Shown here: in pieces, positions 1-54,074 of the stretch | Numbering within the stretch: the stretch's first letter is position 1 | Layout: every line of letters starts with the position of its first letter | Assembly (NCBI GenBank): GCA_002897655.1 | Contig: BDTJ01000031.1 | Coordinates: 19,497-83,496 of the forward strand | DNA: 64,000 nt | Direction: 5' to 3' | From: an archaeon BMS3Abin17 | Lineage (GTDB): Archaea; Nanobdellota; Nanobdellia; Pacearchaeales; GW2011-AR1 | Position numbers and translations under genes: made by a program | The notes under the pieces: generated by a model | The model's database searches: none | Told to the model about the DNA's origin: nothing | Seen by the model: only the letters and a program-made list of their open reading frames with translations

Positions 1-1
1 A

Positions 2-193
2 TTATATAATGCGTTTGAAACGGAAACGCATGCAGATAAATTTTTTAAGGATTTAGGTTTTTCTATTGAAAAATACTCTATGTATGATGGAAGTTATGAG
101 TTATCTGTTTTAAAAAATTTGCCAGAAGATGCAAAGAATAATGCCCTTGGAGCATTAAAATCAGGTCATATCTATGTTGCAAGATTAAAATAG
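2..193 (+). CDS. 3' end of a CDS that begins upstream of the window (hypothetical protein)
   Basis: The frame is open from the window edge to TAG at 191-193. No recognisable motif. Confidence 0.35.
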   Translation, partial: LYNAFETETHADKFFKDLGFSIEKYSMYDGSYELSVLKNLPEDAKNNALGALKSGHIYVARLK

Positions 194-493
194 TCCATAA
201 GAAATAGATAAGAAAAATTTGGGCAAAGCCTTTTATCTTTTGTTAGACTAAATTTTAATTTCGTTGATTTTCTCGTTGGTCGGATAAAAGAAGTTTTTCT
301 GCGAGGAGAAGCCGAGACTATCTGTCCGTTAGGACTAAGGAAATCTCCATATAAATCTCAAAATCTTTGATTTTGACTATCTGTTTTCTTGAAAAGAAAA
401 CCTGCGCGCGTCTCTCCTATTGGGTAGGGGAAAAATATTATTTCCCATTTCTTTGTATTAACTTTATCTTGTAGGCATTCTCAAAAATTGAAA

Positions 494-698
494 CTAACAT
501 TGCGATTAAGAGAAGTAAATCCAAAGGATTTATTTCCCCAAACTTTTCCTCGCGAATGTAATGAGCAGAGCTGAAAAGTGAGGGCGTAGCGAACTGCAAG
601 TGAGCGGAGTTTTAATCGCTGTTAGTAGAGTTTTTTCGTAGAAAAAACCGAGCCAGAATGCAATGTCCCGAAGACGAAGTCGAAGGGCTGGCGAAGAG
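494..698 (+). repeat. Structured intergenic repeat, E-type copy 1
   Basis: Outer arms CTAACA (494-499) and TGTTAG (620-625). Inner arms GCGATTAA and TTAATCGC, with a 2-nt TT bulge. Internal hairpins AAATCC/GGATTT and ACTTTTC/GAAAAGT, then G-T6-C-GTA-G-A6-C at 630-648. About 95% identical to copy 2 outside the central segment. Confidence 0.8.
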
Positions 699-720
699 TA
701 AAAATTTTGTGACCAAAAGA

Positions 721-730
721 TTTATATACT
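721..730 (+). promoter_or_regulatory. Candidate archaeal TATA box for a leaderless transcript starting near ATG 751
   Basis: TTTATATACT is centred about 26 nt upstream of ATG 751. Confidence 0.35.
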
Positions 731-750
731 ACTATAAAGTTACTAATTTT

Positions 751-1092
751 ATGAAAGAAAAAATAATTATAAGTGGATTTTGTCCAGAAATAACTCGAGG
801 AGGAGCATTTGATTTAGAGAAAATTTTAGATATATCTCCACGAGTCTTGGCTAGTGATGAAAAACCACATTATAAAGATAGCCAGAGAACAGAAGTAGGA
901 AAAGTTACTGGGATAAAACAAGGTTATCTATTTAAGAATAAATATTCTCTGAGGACGAGTGGAGGAAATGTTCCTCTAAAATTTGGAAGGAGAGATGAGG
1001 AAGATCCAAATGATTCGCGAACTCCGAGAGTTATATTAAGTTTAGAAGATAATTATTTTTTTAGAAAAGAAATGGTTGAACAATACGAATAA
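751..1092 (+). CDS. Hypothetical protein (orphan small ORF between repeat copies E1 and E2)
   Basis: The ORF track gives 658..1092, but the first 31 codons lie inside the E1 repeat. Met32 (MKEKIIISGF...) follows a TATA-like box. No family recognised. Confidence 0.5.
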   Translation: MKEKIIISGFCPEITRGGAFDLEKILDISPRVLASDEKPHYKDSQRTEVGKVTGIKQGYLFKNKYSLRTSGGNVPLKFGRRDEEDPNDSRTPRVILSLEDNYFFRKEMVEQYE

Positions 1093-1106
1093 GCAAAATT
1101 TTTATT

Positions 1107-1291
1107 TCTACTAACATCGGGCTTAAGAGAAGTAAATCCGAAGGATTTATTTCCCCGTAGGTTTTGAGGCAACCCACAAAACCGAAGGGCGTAGCGAACT
1201 GCAAGTAAGCGAAGTTTTAATCGCTGTTAGTAGAGTTTTTTCGTAGAAAAAACCGAGCCAGAGTGCAACGTCCCGAAGGGCTGGCGAAGAG
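1107..1291 (+). repeat. Structured intergenic repeat, E-type copy 2
   Basis: 10-bp perfect inverted termini TCTACTAACA (1107-1116) and TGTTAGTAGA (1225-1234). The central hairpin GGTTTTG/CAAAACC replaces the E1 hairpin. G-T6-C-GTA-G-A6-C hairpin at 1235-1253. Starts 15 nt after the stop codon at 1092. Confidence 0.8.
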
Positions 1292-1396
1292 TTTCCAATC
1301 TCCGAAAATTCTTTGATATCGTAGTTGTTGAAAAATAGTTATTCACTCTAAAGTGGTAAAAGAACCGAAAGATTTTTAAAGAACCCATTTATCCTA

Positions 1397-2011
1397 ATGA
1401 TAAGGAAAAATAAAATGGCTACAGGATATACAGCAATCATTGGTGAGAAAGAAGATGTTTCATTTAGAGAATTCGCTCTAAAATGCTCAAGAGCTTTTGG
1501 AGCATTAGTTGAAATGAGAGACGAACCAATGGATGCACCAATTCCAAGCGAATTCAAACCTAGTTCTTATCATAAAGATGTATTCGCAAAAGCATGTAAG
1601 GCATTTTATGGAACAATTGGCATGCGTAACGACGAAGCAGAGAGATTGGCAAATGAAAATTATGTGAGCCAACTTGAAAGCCATTCTGAATATATTCAAA
1701 AAGATAAAAATTTATCTGTAAAATATGGTGGAATGTTGGCGAAAGTTGCAAAATGGCAATCTCCAAGTTCAGACCATGATAGTTATAGAGATTTTATGAT
1801 AAGCCAATTAGAAGAAAGTTTACAACACGATTGTGGATACAATCATGATGCTCCAAAAAAAATGACGGGGGCAGAATACAGAAGCAATCTTGTTGAAAGT
1901 GCAAAAAGAGATATGGATTATCATAAAAAAGAATTTGCTGAGGAAGTGAAGCGTGCTAAAGGAAGGACTAAATGGGTTCAAGATTTGGTAACAAATCTTC
2001 CAAAAGATTAA
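1397..2011 (+). CDS. Hypothetical protein (alternative start at 1415, MATGYTAIIG...)
   Basis: 204-aa ORF with ordinary composition. An AAGGA-like purine tract precedes ATG 1415. No family recognised. Confidence 0.55.
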   Translation: MIRKNKMATGYTAIIGEKEDVSFREFALKCSRAFGALVEMRDEPMDAPIPSEFKPSSYHKDVFAKACKAFYGTIGMRNDEAERLANENYVSQLESHSEYIQKDKNLSVKYGGMLAKVAKWQSPSSDHDSYRDFMISQLEESLQHDCGYNHDAPKKMTGAEYRSNLVESAKRDMDYHKKEFAEEVKRAKGRTKWVQDLVTNLPKD

Positions 2012-2046
2012 ATTTTTCGGTTCTACTATTTTTATTTTTCAACAAT

Positions 2047-2120
2047 TTCGTTTAATCAGCGATGTTATCTGAAGTTGCACACAAGTAAAAAAACAATTTC
2101 AGATTGGAGCGTTAAACGAA
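2047..2120 (+). repeat. Hairpin repeat, F-type copy 1
   Basis: Arms TTCGTTTAA (2047-2055) and TTAAACGAA (2112-2120). The flanks (TTTTATTTTTCAACAATTTCGTTTAATCAGCG ... GGAGCGTTAAACGAAG) recur at 3901-3972. Lies about 35 nt after the stop at 2011. Confidence 0.7.
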
Positions 2121-2178
2121 GATATCAAAATCAGAATTTTTGGTTTACCGACGCTGAGGAGGAGATTGGAAATTTCTA

Positions 2179-2348
2179 CTAACATCGGAATTTAACGAAG
2201 TTTGATTTTCCCTCGTGGAGCGAAGCGGAACAGAGCTGGAAAATCAAATTTGGGAAAAATGCGAGCCGAGCATTTTTCCGTTAAATTCCTGTTAATTGCC
2301 CCGAGCCGAAGGCGAGAGCGCAGCGTAGTCGAGGCGAAGCCGAAGAAG
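2179..2348 (+). repeat. Structured intergenic repeat, E-type copy 3 (diverged)
   Basis: CTAACA (2179-2184), TC bulge, GGAATTTAACG (2187-2197), pairing with CGTTAAATTCC-TGTTA (2279-2294). Followed by a purine/GC-rich tail, GAGCGCAGCGTAGTCGAGGCGAAGCCGAAG. Confidence 0.7.
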
Positions 2349-2411
2349 TTTTCAAAAATCCGTCATCAAGAACGAAGTTCCGTTAATAAAAATATTAAGA
2401 GGAAAGAAAAC

Positions 2412-2879
2412 TTAATGTCCACATTCACAAACTGGATGTGGATCATAATCTCCTTCAAATGTTGGAAGGGGTTTTGGATTTAGAAGCTCTTCTCTTAAAA
2501 TTGAAAGTAAATTTTCTCTACCATAATGCTGAGGAAATGTTTCAGCAGTTTCTCCATGGTCAAAAGGAATTTGTTTAATTTCTTTTCTAGAAAATTTACT
2601 TCTTTCTAATGCATAAGCAAGACATTCTGGTTTCCCTACATGATCTGCCCAAATTGTGTAGGGTCTTCCTTTTATGGTCATAGTTTCATAATCCTGTCTT
2701 GCTTGTCTAAAAACAGCATTTTCTAATGCTCCTTCAATTGAAGAATCGTCAATTATTTCATGGTCATATAAAAAAGTTAGAGTTTTTTGATTTTGTCTTG
2801 CATAACTATCAAGCATAAGAATACTAACTTTTTTTAAATCTTCAATTGTTGCTGTTTTTAGTGCATCGTTTAGAGACAT
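2412..2879 (-). CDS. Hypothetical protein
   Basis: 155-aa ORF with normal composition, flanked by E3 and E4. No family recognised. Confidence 0.55.
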   Translation of the reverse strand: MSLNDALKTATIEDLKKVSILMLDSYARQNQKTLTFLYDHEIIDDSSIEGALENAVFRQARQDYETMTIKGRPYTIWADHVGKPECLAYALERSKFSRKEIKQIPFDHGETAETFPQHYGRENLLSILREELLNPKPLPTFEGDYDPHPVCECGH

Positions 2880-2955
2880 AATGTAAGAGGAGAGCTTCAG
2901 TTATTTAAAGTTTTCTTTTCCCTATCACAATAATAGGATTTTTGAAAATTGCAAT

Positions 2956-3210
2956 TAACATTGGATTTAAAGAAGTTCTTGAGCCCTCGAAAATTTTAAT
3001 TCAAATAAAGGAAAAATTTTCAGAGCTGGCGAAAGAATTTGGGAGAGCGACGGCGGGAGCGAACCTTTAAATCCTTGTTCAACGACCTGAGCGAACAAAG
3101 AATATTGTGAACGAAAGCGCAGCGGGGCACGAGTGGAGCAACTTCCCCTTTGCGACCTCGTGAGTTGAAATTTGCCCACGACCGATTTCTTCGCGTAGTT
3201 GCTGAAAACG
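2956..3210 (+). repeat. Structured intergenic repeat, E-type copy 4 (diverged)
   Basis: TAACA (2956-2960), TT bulge, GGATTTAAAG (2963-2972), pairing with CTTTAAATCC (3065-3074) and TGTT (3076-3079). The GC-rich tail includes GAAAGCGCAGCGGGGCACGAG. Confidence 0.65.
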
Positions 3211-3319
3211 TTTTAAAATTGTCTTTGTCTTAGAGCGCGCTTTTTTGCCTTCTTTTTTTCTAAAAAAGAAGATGGGTACTTTTAGATAATTTAATAAATG
3301 TATTCAATTAATTATTATA

Positions 3320-3808
3320 ATGGAAATAAGAAAAGCTAATAAAAAAGATTTCGAAGAACTTTTGAAGTTGATTTTGAAATGTACAATTTATCACCATGAA
3401 TTAGACAAAAAAAATGTGGGCGGCAAAAAATTAAAAAGAGGTTCTATTAAAGAACTAAAAGAAAATGAAACAAAAATCCTAAAAGAAGATCTCAAAAACT
3501 CTTCTACAACAATTTTTATTGCAATTAAAGAAAAGAAGATTGTGGGGTTTATCACTCTCTCTTTTCCATCAAAAAATGCAAATATTAAATCAAAACGAGG
3601 AGAAATAAATGATTTGTTTATTTTAAAAGAGTATAGAAAAAAAGGAATAGGTAAAATGCTTCTCAAGAAAGCCCTCACTTTTTTTAGATTAAAAAAAGTG
3701 AAATTAATTTTGTTGAATGTGGATTCAAATAATTTCTCTGCATTAAAATTTTATGAAAAAATTGGCTTCAAAGAATGTATGAAAAGAATTGGCTTTTATA
3801 TAGAATAA
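3320..3808 (+). CDS. GNAT-family N-acetyltransferase
   Basis: Acetyl-CoA-binding motif YRKKGIGKMLL. GNAT-like beta strand IVGFITLSF. C-terminal NxxALKFYEKIGF motif. Confidence 0.85.
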   Translation: MEIRKANKKDFEELLKLILKCTIYHHELDKKNVGGKKLKRGSIKELKENETKILKEDLKNSSTTIFIAIKEKKIVGFITLSFPSKNANIKSKRGEINDLFILKEYRKKGIGKMLLKKALTFFRLKKVKLILLNVDSNNFSALKFYEKIGFKECMKRIGFYIE

Positions 3809-3838
3809 GTATTAAATCAGAAAAATTTTGGCGAAGCC

Positions 3839-3971
3839 GACTATCTGTTTTCGTAGAAAACTCGCGCGCTCTTGTCTTTTGTTTTGACAATTTTAGTTTT
3901 TTATTTTCAGCAATTTCGTTTAATCAGCGTGTTATGCGATTTTTTAATTTAGCATTGGAGCGTTAAACGAA
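3839..3971 (+). repeat. Composite repeat: G-type module (GACTATCTGTTTTCGTAGAAAAC-CGCGCGC) plus F-type copy 2
   Basis: 3839-3873 matches 375-416 (GACTATCTGTTTTCTTGAAAAGAAAACCTGCGCGCG). Hairpin GTTTTC-GTA-GAAAAC at 3847-3861. F arms TTCGTTTAA (3915-3923) and TTAAACGAA (3963-3971). Confidence 0.7.
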
Positions 3972-3998
3972 GCAAGGAATCATAAGGTCGTGGGTTTA

Positions 3999-4026
3999 TC
4001 GACGGTGCTTTTATTTTTACCGTCGA
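3999..4026 (+). terminator. Stem-loop (8-bp stem TCGACGGT/ACCGTCGA) followed by a T-rich tract; possible terminator or structural element
   Basis: Perfect 8-bp inverted repeat with a 12-nt T-rich loop, between the repeat array and the recombinase gene. Confidence 0.4.
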
Positions 4027-4049
4027 CAAATTTCAATTTTGATGAACAT

Positions 4050-4082
4050 ATATTAAATCTACTTTATTAGGAGATTTAATAT
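4050..4082. promoter_or_regulatory. Perfect 11-bp inverted repeat with an 11-nt spacer; candidate recombinase core site or operator
   Basis: ATATTAAATCT (4050-4060), ACTTTATTAGG, AGATTTAATAT (4072-4082). Lies 57 nt upstream of the recombinase ATG. Confidence 0.4.
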
Positions 4083-4138
4083 TACACTCAGGAGTATTGA
4101 CATATATTTAAATAAGATTTTTATTTTAAAGTTCTAAA

Positions 4139-4966
4139 ATGGATTATACTGATTTAAATCAAAAACATCTTGAAGAATTGAAAAATATTTGTATTCTAAA
4201 GGGATTTAGCAAGCAAACAATTAAGGCATATTACTACAATGTTAAAAGATTTTTGGATTTTATTGCTAAAAGTGGGCTTAATCTTGAAAATAATGCTATT
4301 AAGTCTTATCTTCTCACTCTAAACCTCTCTGTTAATTCAATGAGACTGCAATATGCCTCATTAAGATTCTTTTTTGCAGAGATTCTAAAAAAACCCTTTA
4401 CTACAGCAGATGTTCCTATCAAAAAGAAAGAGAAAATACTTCCAAAACTTCTTAGCAAAGAACAAATTAAAAAACTTATTGAAGCTACAGATAATCTCAA
4501 ACATAAGTTAATTGTTAAGTTGCTCTATTCCTCTGGGCTTAGATTAGGCGAACTTCTTAATCTCAAGAGGAAAGACTTGGATTTTGAGAGAAATATTCTT
4601 TATATAAGAAAAGGTAAAGGGAAAAAAGACAGAATCACATTAATTTCTGAAAACTTAAAACTAGATTTATTAAACTATTATAGTAAAAATACTTTTAAAA
4701 CAGAATATATTCTTGAAGGAAGAAATGGAAAATACACCAAAAAATCAGTTCAAAAAGTATTGGATAACCTTGGAAAGAAAATTGGAACAAAAGTCCATCC
4801 TCATATGTTAAGACACTCTTTTGCAACACATTTACTTGATTCAGGAACAGATATAAGACATATTCAGAAACTTTTAGGCCATAGCGATATTTCCACTACA
4901 GAAATTTACACCCATGTTTCAAACAAAGATTTATCAAACATAAGATCCCCTTTAGATAATATATGA
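4139..4966 (+). CDS. Tyrosine site-specific recombinase (XerA/XerC/XerD-like integrase)
   Basis: N-terminal SAM-like core-binding domain. Catalytic signature SGLRLGELLNL (Arg), HMLRHSFATHLL (H-x-x-R), LLGHSDISTTEIYTH (His and Tyr). 275 aa. Confidence 0.9.
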   Translation: MDYTDLNQKHLEELKNICILKGFSKQTIKAYYYNVKRFLDFIAKSGLNLENNAIKSYLLTLNLSVNSMRLQYASLRFFFAEILKKPFTTADVPIKKKEKILPKLLSKEQIKKLIEATDNLKHKLIVKLLYSSGLRLGELLNLKRKDLDFERNILYIRKGKGKKDRITLISENLKLDLLNYYSKNTFKTEYILEGRNGKYTKKSVQKVLDNLGKKIGTKVHPHMLRHSFATHLLDSGTDIRHIQKLLGHSDISTTEIYTHVSNKDLSNIRSPLDNI

Positions 4967-4987: not shown

Positions 4988-5449
4988 TTGAGCATGATTT
5001 TAATAAGGAGGAGTATAATTAAAATCATATACACAAATTCAGATGGTGGTGCAAGAGGCAATCCTGGTCCAGGAGCTATTGGAGTGATTGTCAGGCGTGA
5101 TGGACATATTCTTACAAAATACAGCAAGAAGATTGGGAATAATATTACAAACAATGTTGCAGAGTATGAAGCATTGATTAAAGCGCTTGAGCTGGCAAGC
5201 AAGTTTACAAAAGAAGATATAACTTGTATTCTTGATTCAGAACTTGTTGTGAATCAATTACTTGGAAAATACAGAGTTAGAAATCCAAGACTTCTTGAAT
5301 TATTTCTAAAAGTCCAAAAACTTCAGGAAAATTTCAGGAGAATAAAATACAAACATGCAAGTAGGGAGGATAAATTTCAAATCCTAGCTGATGAATTATT
5401 AAATGATGAACTTGACAGGCATGGCCATAAGAGGTATTATAGGAGGTGA
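4988..5449 (+). CDS. rnhA: Ribonuclease HI (type 1 RNase H)
   Basis: Motifs YTNSDGGARGNPGPGAIGV, TNNVAEYEALIKALELA and LDSELVVNQL match the RNase HI DEDD core. The exact start is uncertain. Confidence 0.8.
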   Translation: MSMILIRRSIIKIIYTNSDGGARGNPGPGAIGVIVRRDGHILTKYSKKIGNNITNNVAEYEALIKALELASKFTKEDITCILDSELVVNQLLGKYRVRNPRLLELFLKVQKLQENFRRIKYKHASREDKFQILADELLNDELDRHGHKRYYRR

Positions 5450-7251: not shown

Positions 7252-7509
7252 ATGGCACAAATAATACACTACCCAAGTTTAAAAACCATGTTGATGATTG
7301 AGAAGGTTTTGAAAAATGCTGAGACAATTATTAGCAGAGAGGAGCTCAAAAGAAGATTACCTGTCAAGATTATGCACCAGACATTAAATATAATCCTAAA
7401 CTATTTAGAAGAAAGGAATATGATAATGGATGGACACAAGGGAATTTTATGGATATATAATCCAAGTCCAAAATTAAAAAGAGCTATTGAAAAAGGAACA
7501 GAAATCTAA
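7252..7509 (+). CDS. Small winged-helix-like protein; possible antitoxin partner of the downstream RelE/ParE-like gene
   Basis: 85 aa. Its stop lies 1 nt before the probable start of the next gene. Helix-rich with a basic patch. Confidence 0.45.
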   Translation: MAQIIHYPSLKTMLMIEKVLKNAETIISREELKRRLPVKIMHQTLNIILNYLEERNMIMDGHKGILWIYNPSPKLKRAIEKGTEI

Positions 7510-7510
7510 G

Positions 7511-7861
7511 ATGTATAAAAATAAAGAAGTAAGCATAAAATTATCAGAGGAGGCTAATGATGTTTATGAAGAATTAAATAAGCTAGTTGGTGAAGAAAAA
7601 AGAAAAGAAATAAATAGTTCATTTCATCAAACTTTATTAAGGTCAATTAAGAGAGTAAAAGAATTATTAAAAAATAATCCCTTTGCAGGAGACCAAGTTC
7701 AAAGGAGACAATTGCCAAAAAAGTATCTTAAAGAATATGATGCTGATAATGTCTGGAGAATAGAATTAGCTAACAGATGGAGATTAATATATACTATAAC
7801 AGGAAATAAAGTAGAAATAATAACTTTTGTAATGGATATCTTCAATCATAAAAAATTATGA
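7511..7861 (+). CDS. RelE/ParE-superfamily toxin-like protein
   Basis: The C-terminal NPFAGD...NVWRIELANRWRLIYTITGNKVEIITFVMDIFNH matches the RelE/ParE fold signature. The ORF track start is 7487; Met at 7511 avoids the overlap. Confidence 0.6.
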   Translation: MYKNKEVSIKLSEEANDVYEELNKLVGEEKRKEINSSFHQTLLRSIKRVKELLKNNPFAGDQVQRRQLPKKYLKEYDADNVWRIELANRWRLIYTITGNKVEIITFVMDIFNHKKL

Positions 7862-19470: not shown

Positions 19471-19586
19471 CTTATTTAACCTTATTTGAACTAAGTTAGA
19501 CTTATTTATAATCCTTTCTATTAAGATTTATATCAAACGCTCCACCAGAGATTTGACCAGTTTAAACTTAGGATGTTAATATTAAC

Positions 19587-53956: not shown

Positions 53957-53968
53957 TTTATTATGAAA

Positions 53969-54041
53969 TGGGGCTACCAGGATTTGAACCTGGGTCATGA
54001 AGTCCCAAACCTCATAGGCTACCAAACTACCCCATAACCCC
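53969..54041 (-). tRNA. tRNA-Pro (anticodon UGG)
   Basis: Hand-folded cloverleaf. Acceptor GGGGTTA/TAGCCCC. D arm GGGT..GCCT. Anticodon stem TGAGG/CTTCA with loop TT-TGG-GA. T arm CCAGG-TTCAAAT-CCTGG. Discriminator A. CCA is not encoded. Confidence 0.85.
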
Positions 54042-54074
54042 ATGAAAAATAAAAGCTTTGATGAATTTATAAAG

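Follow-up and report, generated by a model that had tools for sequence, protein, structure and literature searches.

A probable integron-like gene-capture platform with a Xer-type recombinase in a DPANN archaeon

Contig BDTJ01000031.1 of the archaeon BMS3Abin17 (assembly GCA_002897655.1) was analyzed over 64,000 nucleotides (positions 19,497 to 83,496 of the forward strand, hereafter the window). The host DNA is AT-rich, with ~31% GC, and genes for a histone-fold protein, Hjc, Pus10 and MJ0538 are found in the vicinity. Near the left end of the window, an array of long hairpins, here called E elements, alternates with single genes and ends at a gene for a tyrosine recombinase (4139–4966, + strand). 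An earlier, sequence-only reading of this DNA had proposed that the array is either an integron-like cassette array or a new family of structured elements. The first proposal is supported by a rule that relates the ends of consecutive cassettes, by an attI-like site beside the recombinase gene and by the linkage of recombinase genes to such arrays, and the second holds alongside it. We consider it likely that a DPANN (Woesearchaeota-type) archaeon has here a chromosomal platform for integron-like gene capture, one that uses a Xer-type recombinase and is not a canonical integron.

Hairpins and genes of the array

The four E elements of the window, all on the + strand, lie where the sequence-only reading had placed them, and each is matched by the covariance model described below (E1, 486–633; E2, 1103–1238; E3, 2171–2303; E4, 2947–3089; E-values 1e-22 to 2e-5). 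As a single strand, each E consists of an outer AACA/TGTT stem, a 2-nt bulge in the 5' arm, an inner stem of 8–11 bp and a branched interior, and the single-stranded DNA folds of E1, E2, E3 and E4 have z-scores of -6.0, -4.5, -6.9 and -2.3, respectively. The sequence, the folds and the alignment all bear out the outer arms (C)TAACA/TGTTA(G). The inner arms differ between copies yet remain complementary, with GCGATTAA/TTAATCGC in E1, GGAATTTAACG/CGTTAAATTCC in E3 and GGATTTAAAG/CTTTAAATCC in E4, and the left-arm bulge reads TT, TC and TT in these three copies, again as proposed. In E1 (63 bits, E-value 5e-10), AATT (486–489) precedes six nucleotides, N6 (GAAACT, 490–495), then AACA (496–499), the TT bulge, an 8-bp inner stem, the branched interior, TGTT (620–623) and a second set of six nucleotides, N6' (AGTAGA, 624–629). 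E3, the strongest match (122.6 bits), has the N6 TCTACT, an 11-bp inner stem and the N6' AATTGC, and E4 (66 bits) has the N6 GCAATT, a 10-bp inner stem and the N6' CAACGA. The poor pairing that had been remarked on in E2 (41.5 bits) reflects a chimeric hairpin. Its left inner arm, GGGCTTAAGAG, is not complementary to its right inner arm, TTTTAATCGC, which it has in common with E1, and the centroid of its fold lacks the inner stem. A repeat finder returns the same swapped center that had been noted by eye, with E1 and E2 sharing 47 nt at 91% and 93 nt at 96% identity on either side of unrelated sequence. The E elements are also GC-richer than their surroundings, as had been stated (38–42% GC, compared with 28–36% in 1-kb windows of the region). 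In bacteria and viruses, the matches that the sequence pattern gives by chance have only two to five of eight inner-arm bases complementary, compared with eight of eight in most real copies, and the model rejects them. The E elements of the window are therefore real, and chance is excluded.

The array had been thought to begin at position 200. Instead, three more copies precede the window start on the same contig, at 3472–3600, 4016–4188 and 4717–4849 in the coordinates of a second copy of the locus (L001, contig DREW01000028.1 of assembly GCA_011050875.1), which equal window coordinates plus 5862. In L001, these three upstream copies begin 25 nt past the stop codon of an acylphosphatase gene. 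Altogether, seven E copies, all on the + strand, occupy 6.5 kb up to the recombinase gene, and one gene separates each copy from the next. The covariance model finds no further copy elsewhere in the 64-kb window, in which the four E elements all fall inside 3.1 kb, and in 20-kb contexts copies occur only upstream of the recombinase. Thus the REP/MITE-like dispersal that would have spoken against an integron is not seen: the copies are clustered, co-oriented and tied to the recombinase.

The genes between the hairpins are, as reported, one GNAT acetyltransferase and three proteins with no Pfam match, in mixed orientation. The window opens with the 3' end (1–193, + strand) of an orphan gene for 310 aa (gene call at L001 5123–6055), the cargo of the cassette that starts at the upstream E at L001 4717–4849. 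Next come ORF-A (751–1092, + strand, 113 aa; present in both the list of open reading frames, or ORFs, and the gene call), which has its own TATA-like box, TTTATATA, ~25 nt before its ATG; ORF-B (1397–2011, + strand, 204 aa), for which an exact-sequence look-up of the protein returned no match; and ORF-C (2412–2879, - strand, 155 aa). None of these three cassette genes has a Pfam match. The fourth cassette gene encodes the GNAT acetyltransferase (3320–3808, + strand, 162 aa; Pfam Acetyltransf_1, 3e-20). A look-up of the GNAT protein returned only the same cassette order as in the window, in other assemblies.

Cassette content nevertheless differs between strains. A contig from another marine sample (L002) carries an identical recombinase, an identical attI-like site and an identical hairpin F2 (described below), and the 200 nt on the left side of its F2 match no part of the window array. 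The ORF content of relatives is therefore not syntenic, since this other sample has unrelated sequence at the second position from the recombinase. One short contig (L206) runs from the left junction of E3 to ...TTGATGA. It stops a single base short of the ACA of the attI-like site, at the place where an assembly graph would branch if that junction were polymorphic. In close relatives, the contigs stop a short way upstream of the recombinase gene. A further contig (NODE_675 of ERZ1742235) stops ~230 nt past the GNAT gene. The sequence there includes AGATCGGAAGAGCG, an Illumina adapter, and this end is an assembly artifact.

The cargo of such arrays is heterogeneous and accessory. Among 30 cassette ORFs from other loci, Pfam identifies SAM methyltransferases, a DNA methylase, NYN, HAD, MFS, an AlaE exporter, a racemase, an APH kinase, HD, TrmB, a C39 peptidase and an rve transposase, and many of the 30 have no Pfam match. 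In one locus (L210), a single cassette of 3.8 kb holds a complete restriction-modification system between matching ATATTC/GAATAT ends.

The E family, cassette junctions and the folded strand

To define E elements beyond this locus, a pattern of conserved letters, AACAT[CT]...TT....GAAGT...AGAGCTG, was scanned over a collection of species-representative genomes, in which at least 119 stretches matched. Among the matches listed, most real ones lie in metagenome-assembled genomes (MAGs) named Woesearchaeota, Pacearchaeota, Nanoarchaeota, Aenigmatarchaeota, Iainarchaeum and Altiarchaeales, and a few in bins labeled Methanosarcinales, Patescibacteria and Thioploca. An alignment of 67 E copies selected for pairing (A2) served as the basis of a covariance model (R1), which yields 171 E matches in 87 sources, mostly DPANN MAGs. 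The retrieved loci and contigs carry L-numbers as labels, and the E-bearing ones were examined mostly as 8-kb stretches. The matches typically form arrays of two to seven same-strand copies per 8-kb locus, with an opposite-strand copy in two loci only. E arrays appear to be common in Woese- and Pacearchaeota-type DPANN archaea. Full-scoring E copies of the DPANN type also occur on contigs binned as bacterial (L012, L030, L041 and L070, Patescibacteria/Dojkabacteria; L037, Thioploca; L065, Gammaproteobacteria), which reflects either binning error or carriage of cassettes across domains. The 11 pattern matches among IMG/VR viral contigs serve as a chance control, as the model confirmed none of them, and they give no sign of viral carriage. 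Rfam 15 returned nothing relevant at the gathering threshold in the whole window and nothing credible at E ≤ 10 in 1–4300.

The family consensus reads AATT - N6 - AACA - TC - P1 (11 bp, G[GC]NNTTNANNG) - AAGT - variable hairpins, often with CAGAGCTG - AATTTGGG - hairpin - P1' - TGTT - N6'. In the 67-copy alignment, AACA and TGTT are invariant and the 11-bp inner stem covaries strongly, as had been anticipated from the copies of the window. Both sides change in 10 of 16 pairs, and the covariation score is 0.44, compared with 0.12 for shuffles and at most 0.08 for slid partners. The percentage of paired positions in this alignment is circular because its copies were selected for pairing, which does not apply to the number of pair types. 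Independent support that the pairing is real comes from the matches found by the pattern only, most of which pair at eight of eight positions in archaeal loci, compared with the two to five of eight of chance matches.

When the seven local copies are aligned, their 10-nt outer arms fall into four types, and each element's right arm agrees with the left arm of the element after it and not with its own. The same relation holds generally. Among 58 consecutive pairs, 35 show a match (at least 6/7 positions) between the 6 nt that follow TGTT, read as the reverse complement, and the 6 nt that precede the next AACA; the figures are 12 of 139 for the two flanks of one element and 3.4% for random pairs from the same pool. 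The cassette with the 310-aa gene follows this rule, with AGTTTC after the upstream E and GAAACT before E1. Each stretch from one E copy to the next is therefore bounded by inverted ends of its own. The same is true of integron cassettes, because the crossover lies inside the conserved AAC/GTT triplet.

The direction of exchange is indicated by near-identical E cores that occur at different loci. The right N6' alone is shared in 29 pairs of such cores (~8 independent clusters), compared with the left N6 alone in one pair, and similarity never extends leftwards out of the core but extends rightwards in 12 of 57 pairs, for 30–450 nt. The right flank is thus kept and the left flank swapped, so that an ORF and the E on its left form one unit, joined at the 5' AAC. 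In L211, one cassette is flanked by mutated yet complementary TGTA...TACA boxes. Because these boxes covary across the cassette, the first A of AACA travels with the left-hand cassette. From these patterns, the mobile unit would be CA-core-TGTT-N6' ... gene ... AATT-N6-A(A), with the predicted exchange point in the 5' AAC of the + strand. For attC sites, the bottom strand is cleaved at this same position and with this same polarity.

The loops of the E interiors point to the same strand. GNA triloops are unusually stable DNA minihairpins. Among 129 distinct E interiors, GNA triloops on a closing stem of 3 bp or more number 99 on the + strand and 0 on the - strand, the commonest being T-GCA-A and C-GAA-G, the latter including the GCGAAGC minihairpin. 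This asymmetry is taken to indicate that the + strand is the one that folds. In addition, G-T wobbles fill 24 cells on the + strand, and at most 13 cells fail standard pairing, which caps wobble on the other strand. The bottom strand of attC_aadA7 also contains GCGAAGC (sequence from PMC9668308), and with the triloops this equates the + strand of E with the bottom strand of integrons. The polarity that the sequence-only reading had assumed is therefore reversed: an E is part of the cassette to its right, with the crossover at the left AAC of the E. The opposite assignment, with the + strand as the integron top strand, was entertained and abandoned. It placed the recombinase at the wrong end of the array, and the flank-linkage comparison and the attI-like junctions reversed it. 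A second discarded idea took N6 as the classical 6-bp overlap of a double-stranded Xer site; a conserved arm is present on only one side of each junction.

Cassettes also have a polarity that their genes do not share. The word AATT stands to the left of N6 in ~57 of 67 copies and essentially never to the right. Cassette ORFs, in contrast, read in the same sense as E in 24 cases and in the opposite sense in 26. TATA-like boxes are present inside cassettes.

The attI-like site, the recombinase and their surroundings

Aligning the 400 nt upstream of the recombinase start codon in the window and its relatives revealed a site kept in 15 loci, 90–130 nt upstream of the recombinase ATG. Its consensus, AATT(G) - N6 - AACA - T - [AC]TATTA..TCTACTT - GAAA - AAGTAGATTTAA, corresponds to the left half of the E outer box followed directly by a hairpin with an 11–15-bp stem, with no closing TGTT. 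In the window, this attI-like terminal site spans 4035–4082 on the + strand and comprises AATT, the N6 TTGATG, AACA (4045–4048), T and an 11-bp stem hairpin (4050–4060 with 4072–4082), which folds with a z-score of -4.8. The junction between this site and the last E obeys the cassette rule in seven of nine loci. The attI-like N6 and the reverse complement of the N6' of the last E agree at 6/6 positions in L126, L130, L066, L210 and L211 and at 5/6 in L207 and L115. The site thus behaves, to judge by these junctions, as the terminal junction where the newest cassette would abut the platform. At the left edge of the array in L001 and L211, AACA is preceded by GAGTAATATTG-N, and the same words stand directly before the attI-like AACA in L131 and L115. 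This is the trace that insertion at the attI-like AAC would be expected to leave. As the + strand is the equivalent of the bottom strand, the array starts at the recombinase and runs leftwards, and the recombinase lies at the canonical end, beside the attI-like site, its gene diverging from the array as in the classical integron map.

The recombinase gene (4139–4966, + strand) encodes a XerA-type enzyme of 275 aa, the length given before, with Pfam Phage_integrase and SAM-like domains and the C-terminal sequence RSPLD. It scores 229.2 bits against the NCBIfam XerA_Arch equivalog (NF040815; cutoff 220) and 191 bits, in two stretches, against the integron integrase model TIGR02249 (cutoff 265). 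Its best solved relative is Pyrococcus abyssi XerA (PDB 4a8e; 160 bits), to which it aligns in one stretch over query residues 10–266, with the catalytic core aligned end to end. By the curated cutoff and by this full-length similarity to a solved XerA, the enzyme is an archaeal XerA. In contrast, VchIntIA (2a3v) aligns in two stretches with 47 extra VchIntIA residues between them, such that query residues 174–211 face chain residues 174–258. BLASTP to IntI1 gives 30% identity and a single gap, of ~45 aa, where the additional domain lies; the C-terminal RSPLD is the same in both proteins. In the measurable array-linked homologs, nearly all of which have an SPLD-type tail, 63–66 aa separate GKGxKxR from HxLRH. 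The insertion around patch III that defines integron integrases, the IntI additional domain, is thus absent. The sequence-only reading had considered that a recombinase grouping firmly with chromosomal XerA, combined with scattered repeats and the lack of any attC-model match, or a fully syntenic ORF content would overturn the integron interpretation. The XerA type and the missing IntI domain are indeed observed; the scattering and the synteny are not, and these comparisons leave the integron-like interpretation unrefuted.

More than 7,700 proteins are related to this recombinase at E < 1e-20, and the best 120 are all ~275 aa long and 66–84% identical. Databases name the relatives XerD, tyrosine-type recombinase or, in NCBI, "site-specific tyrosine recombinase/integron integrase." Their genes are linked to E arrays. 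A homolog is present in 10 E-bearing 8-kb loci and in eight of these lies at the right end of an E(+) array, pointing away from it; L126 and L130 show the same arrangement as the window. Conversely, when four long contigs were chosen by a 69–75% identical recombinase alone, three had one, three and six E(+) copies directly upstream and none downstream, and the fourth has only 1 kb of upstream sequence. The nine closest genome matches (48–82% identity) are all Woesearchaeota/Nanoarchaeota MAGs. Seven of their contigs end 90–650 nt upstream of the gene, and the remaining two end inside a strong E copy 2.3–2.6 kb upstream of the recombinase. The neighbors on the downstream side of the gene differ in L207, L209, L210 and L211, and the chromosomal setting of the platform is thus not conserved. 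In the window and in other samples, an RNase H gene of the RVT_3 type (4988–5449 in the window) follows the recombinase gene directly.

More distant homologs, ~40% identical, are found in ANME-1/Methanophagales, Methanocellales, Nitrospinae, Atribacteria, Aminicenantes, Caldisericum, Peptococcaceae and others, with weaker R1 matches (25–55 bits) downstream of the gene on the opposite strand. These include a sister variant of the hairpin (L135, L146, L154, L155, L173 and others), ~90–110 nt long, which has TAAC-G-TTxx in place of AACA-TC and a bulge of 5 nt versus 1 nt, and in which GAAGT, GCGAAGC-type hairpins and AATTTGGG are present. Examined by hand, this TAACG variant obeys the cassette rule at two of two junctions in L135, two of two in L146 and two to three of three in L155. 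When these loci are turned so that E reads on the + strand, the recombinase once more occupies the right end of the array, but its gene points into the array. The recombinases of the variant appear to lack the IntI domain. Several of these genomes have two or three recombinase loci, compared with only one in each DPANN MAG of the genome scan.

Smaller structured modules are dispersed among the non-coding parts of the cassettes. Two members of a short hairpin family, F, had been described. F1 (2047–2120, + strand) is a short E-like hairpin nested in the ORF-B cassette with self-complementary flanks, AATT-TCGTTT-AAT ... GTT-AAACGA, and is also found in L051, L115 and L211; the left edge of F2 (3897–3972, + strand) coincides with the start of identity with the variant-strain contig L002. 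Their common 33-nt left end (91% identical) and their TTCGTTTAA/TTAAACGAA stem are borne out, but of the two folds that of F1 is significant (z -3.2) and that of F2 is not (z -0.9). The non-coding tail of the 310-aa-gene cassette (205–430, + strand) holds a G module and a module of GACTATCTG, a hairpin and GCGCGCG, the hairpin being the variant previously placed at 383–401. The G module (205–300), AAATTTGGG - CGAAG minihairpin - TTTTATC (P1') - TTGTTAG - hairpin - GTTGGTC - GATAAAAG (P1) - AAGT, resembles an inside-out E, though its fold energy is no better than that of shuffles. It also stands just upstream of the attI-like site, in the recombinase-proximal cassette, in L126, L127, L128, L130 and L207. 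After the GNAT gene, a module of GACTATCTG, the hairpin GTTTTC-GTA-GAAAAC and CGCGCGC occupies 3836–3870 (+ strand), with related copies in L128, L130 and L210. The GTTTT(TT)C-GTA-G(AA)AAAAC hairpins are all where they had been placed, but CGCGCGC, described as often following them, does so in only two of the four. The word GACTATCT followed by a hairpin with a GNA or similar loop recurs at 310–420 and 3836–3870 of the window, where GCGCGCG comes next, and in the non-coding cassette tails of L128, L130 and L210.

Elsewhere in the window, a tRNA-Pro (TGG) at 53968–54042 is the sole match of Rfam, at its gathering threshold, and of ARAGORN. At 7252–7861, 2.3 kb downstream of the recombinase and outside the array, an 85-aa ORF overlaps a 124-aa ORF with a weak ParE_toxin match (E 0.002), and the two probably form a toxin-antitoxin pair. 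Two direct-repeat pairs (24144–24210/29525–29591 and 25596–25641/31470–31515), 75–76% identical and 5.4–5.9 kb apart, lie in a region of raised GC with a strong GC skew and probably mark a pair of large paralogous genes.

Proposed mechanism, alternatives and comparison with known systems

From these sequence patterns, we infer a mechanism for a platform with three parts, namely the XerA-family recombinase gene (4139–4966), the attI-like site (4035–4082) and at least seven cassettes running leftwards. A cassette would carry an E on the side far from the recombinase, then a short non-coding stretch with structure and, in most cases, a single gene that may face either way under its own promoter, and it would close on the right with AATT-N6. 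It would pass through a transient circle, in which N6-AACA could pair with TGTT-N6' to form a stem of ~21 bp, made up of a 10-bp outer box, the 2-nt bulge and an 11-bp inner box. The + strand would fold as single-stranded DNA, and the recombinase, as the presumed catalyst, would swap a single strand between the 5' AAC of the folded E and the AAC of either the attI-like hairpin or another E. Replication would then resolve the product of this single-strand exchange. Integration beside the recombinase gene would stack cassettes, and recombination between two E copies would excise them. The recombinase may double as a chromosome-dimer resolvase.

Several observations weigh against this interpretation. 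About 40% of consecutive pairs break the junction rule, many of them across large gaps where a (divergent) copy may be missed. In the window, the junction nearest the recombinase also breaks it (E4 N6' CAACGA versus TTGATG on the attI side), as does that of L105. E2 and the leftmost copy of the array are chimeric, both with the E1 right arm TTAATCGC. Within an array, the two outer 6-nt segments of an E do not pair with each other, which leaves the folded site with an outer stem of only ~5 bp. The attI-like site is itself a hairpin, unlike the double-stranded attI, and the conserved loop motifs GAAGT and AATTTGGG have no counterpart in attC. Finally, a highly conserved recombinase that passes as a XerA equivalog may be a housekeeping enzyme that lies beside the array for another cause.

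This last point leads to the alternative that fares best, though we judge it unlikely, in which cassettes parasitize a housekeeping XerA/dif system as integrative mobile elements exploiting Xer (IMEX) such as the CTX phage do. The recombinase would then be the normal dimer resolvase, and the attI-like palindrome would be dif. CTX phage uses a folded single-stranded DNA site and a single Xer-catalyzed strand exchange. The equivalog score and strong conservation of the enzyme and its single locus per DPANN MAG in the genome scan agree with this alternative, and the palindrome, TCTACTT-GAAA-AAGTAGA, is typical of tyrosine recombinase core sites, which makes it a candidate chromosomal dif. However, the non-DPANN lineages have several homologs per genome, each with E-like arrays, which suggests dedicated enzymes, and in Thermococcales dif does not lie beside xerA (PMC2958812). 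This alternative would differ from the gene-capture platform proposed here only in the ownership of the recombinase, the cassette mechanism being the same.

It is still less probable that the locus is an ordinary integron akin to the archaeal integrons described in 2022, with E as a diverged form of attC and the recombinase as one of IntI. The architecture as a whole and the AAC/GTT boxes do fit an integron, the logic of hybrid junctions is identical to that of attC, and the recombinase shares the tail of IntI1 and has relatives that NCBI names integron integrase. However, the additional domain is absent, as the 63–66-aa GKGxKxR-to-HxLRH spacing of the measurable array-linked homologs also reflects, and the E model, with filters off, misses attC_aadA7 in a class 1 integron. 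Moreover, the cassettes of E arrays do not share one orientation, and the bulge of E and the extrahelical bases of attC are on opposite arms. The archaeal attCs tested in PMC9668308 are 58–95 nt long and lack GAAGT and AATTTGGG, and neither this assembly nor the searched E-bearing contig accessions appear in the supplementary tables of that study.

The remaining two alternatives are very improbable. In one, the 10-bp inverted repeats (TGTT-N6' ... N6-AACA) would be inversion sites of a shufflon- or fim-type switch for each cassette, and not products of capture. A perfect inverted repeat of its own does surround every rule-abiding cassette, genes are almost evenly split in their orientation relative to E (24:26), and the requirement of tyrosine recombinases for identical overlap regions would give end pairs private to each cassette. 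Frequent inversion, however, would place AATT on either side equally, at odds with its one-sided position. Nor can inversion give identical cores with different left flanks across genomes, a pattern that needs transfer, or the behavior of the attI-like junction, or the differences in content between strains. Least credible of all is that E is a structured RNA, either a small RNA or a cis-regulatory leader, or else a selfish repeat of the REP/MITE kind unconnected with the recombinase, since, for all that E elements are GC-rich structures in an AT-rich genome with a strand-specific fold and conserved loop motifs, they have no Rfam match even at E ≤ 10, no conserved upstream promoter and no fixed orientation relative to genes, their GNA triloops are characteristic of stable DNA minihairpins, their copies are not dispersed, and the cassette rule and recombinase linkage would be left unexplained.

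Integrons are the textbook device for stockpiling and shuffling single genes, and the IntI insertion is what handles their folded single-stranded sites. Whether E arrays form a previously unrecognized cross-domain class of gene-capture system, integron-like but based on Xer-type recombinases that never gained the IntI insertion, is a proposition for which we see the scales evenly balanced. If it holds, such arrays could represent either the ancestral state or an independent parallel of the integron, and a plain Xer fold would be able to recombine folded single-stranded cassette sites. If functional, the arrays would provide a natural test of the Xer-to-IntI transition, would explain the frequent assembly breaks just upstream of the recombinase in tiny archaeal genomes and would constitute a large mobile accessory gene pool in DPANN archaea and some bacteria, one that we found no sign of current integron finders reporting. 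The compact pair of recombinase and site could also be tried as a tool, and the family-wide distribution of E arrays makes them worth experimental follow-up. Our literature search found no description of this arrangement, and several known systems share parts of it.

In IMEX such as the CTX phage, which use dif and host XerCD, a Xer enzyme without the IntI insertion likewise acts on a folded, bulged single strand in one exchange followed by replication, as would be the case here by analogy. IMEX are, however, single phage or island genomes at dif and not arrays of one-gene cassettes with their own hairpin family. The pdif modules of Acinetobacter (in part from PMC7399989) are likewise small gene modules bounded by Xer-type sites and thought to be mobilized by Xer, but their sites are 28-bp double-stranded core sites in alternating orientation, whereas E elements are long co-oriented hairpins. 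With the archaeal XerA/dif system the array shares its recombinase, a XerA equivalog whose nearest solved relative is that of P. abyssi. In Thermococcales, in contrast, there is one 28-bp dif, away from xerA, and no cassette arrays are described there (PMC2958812).

For integrons in archaea, Ghaly et al. (2022; PMC9668308) screened all NCBI archaeal genomes to October 2021, after quality filtering, with HattCI and IntegronFinder. As here, they describe cassette arrays in archaeal MAGs, including Nanoarchaeota, most of them without a recognizable IntI. Their arrays differ in having canonical attCs (58–95 nt) and, in six cases, IntIs with the additional domain. The supplement of that study contains neither this assembly, nor the searched E-bearing contig accessions, nor E sequence motifs, which suggests, indirectly, that E arrays escape screening with HattCI and IntegronFinder.

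The closest likeness is to sedentary chromosomal integrons, for example the Vibrio superintegron. Both have a tyrosine recombinase gene placed at the end of the array beside a primary insertion site, although this site is a hairpin in E arrays. Both consist of co-oriented arrays of mostly single-gene cassettes, each with an imperfect hairpin bearing AAC...GTT outer boxes and a paired inner box, in both the sites are alike within an array, and both carry accessory and orphan cargo. In both, crossover between AA and C (G and TT) on the folded strand generates hybrid sites, such that a cassette carries both halves of its own outer box. The differences lie in the enzyme and in the details of the site. 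The array recombinase lacks the additional domain of integron integrases. E is 100–190 nt long with the conserved loop motifs GAAGT, CAGAGCTG and AATTTGGG, and its outer 6 nt vary freely between cassettes. The left-arm bulge had been likened to the extrahelical bases that give attC its polarity, but this likeness does not hold: E has a 2–5-nt bulge in the 5' arm of the folded strand, whereas attC has extrahelical bases in the 3' (R''-L'') arm of the bottom strand. Lastly, in place of promoterless, co-oriented cassettes read from Pc, the genes of E arrays lie in either orientation (24:26) with promoters of their own. Because its recombinase groups with XerA and has no IntI domain, the platform is not a member of the integron family as defined, but it is built like one.

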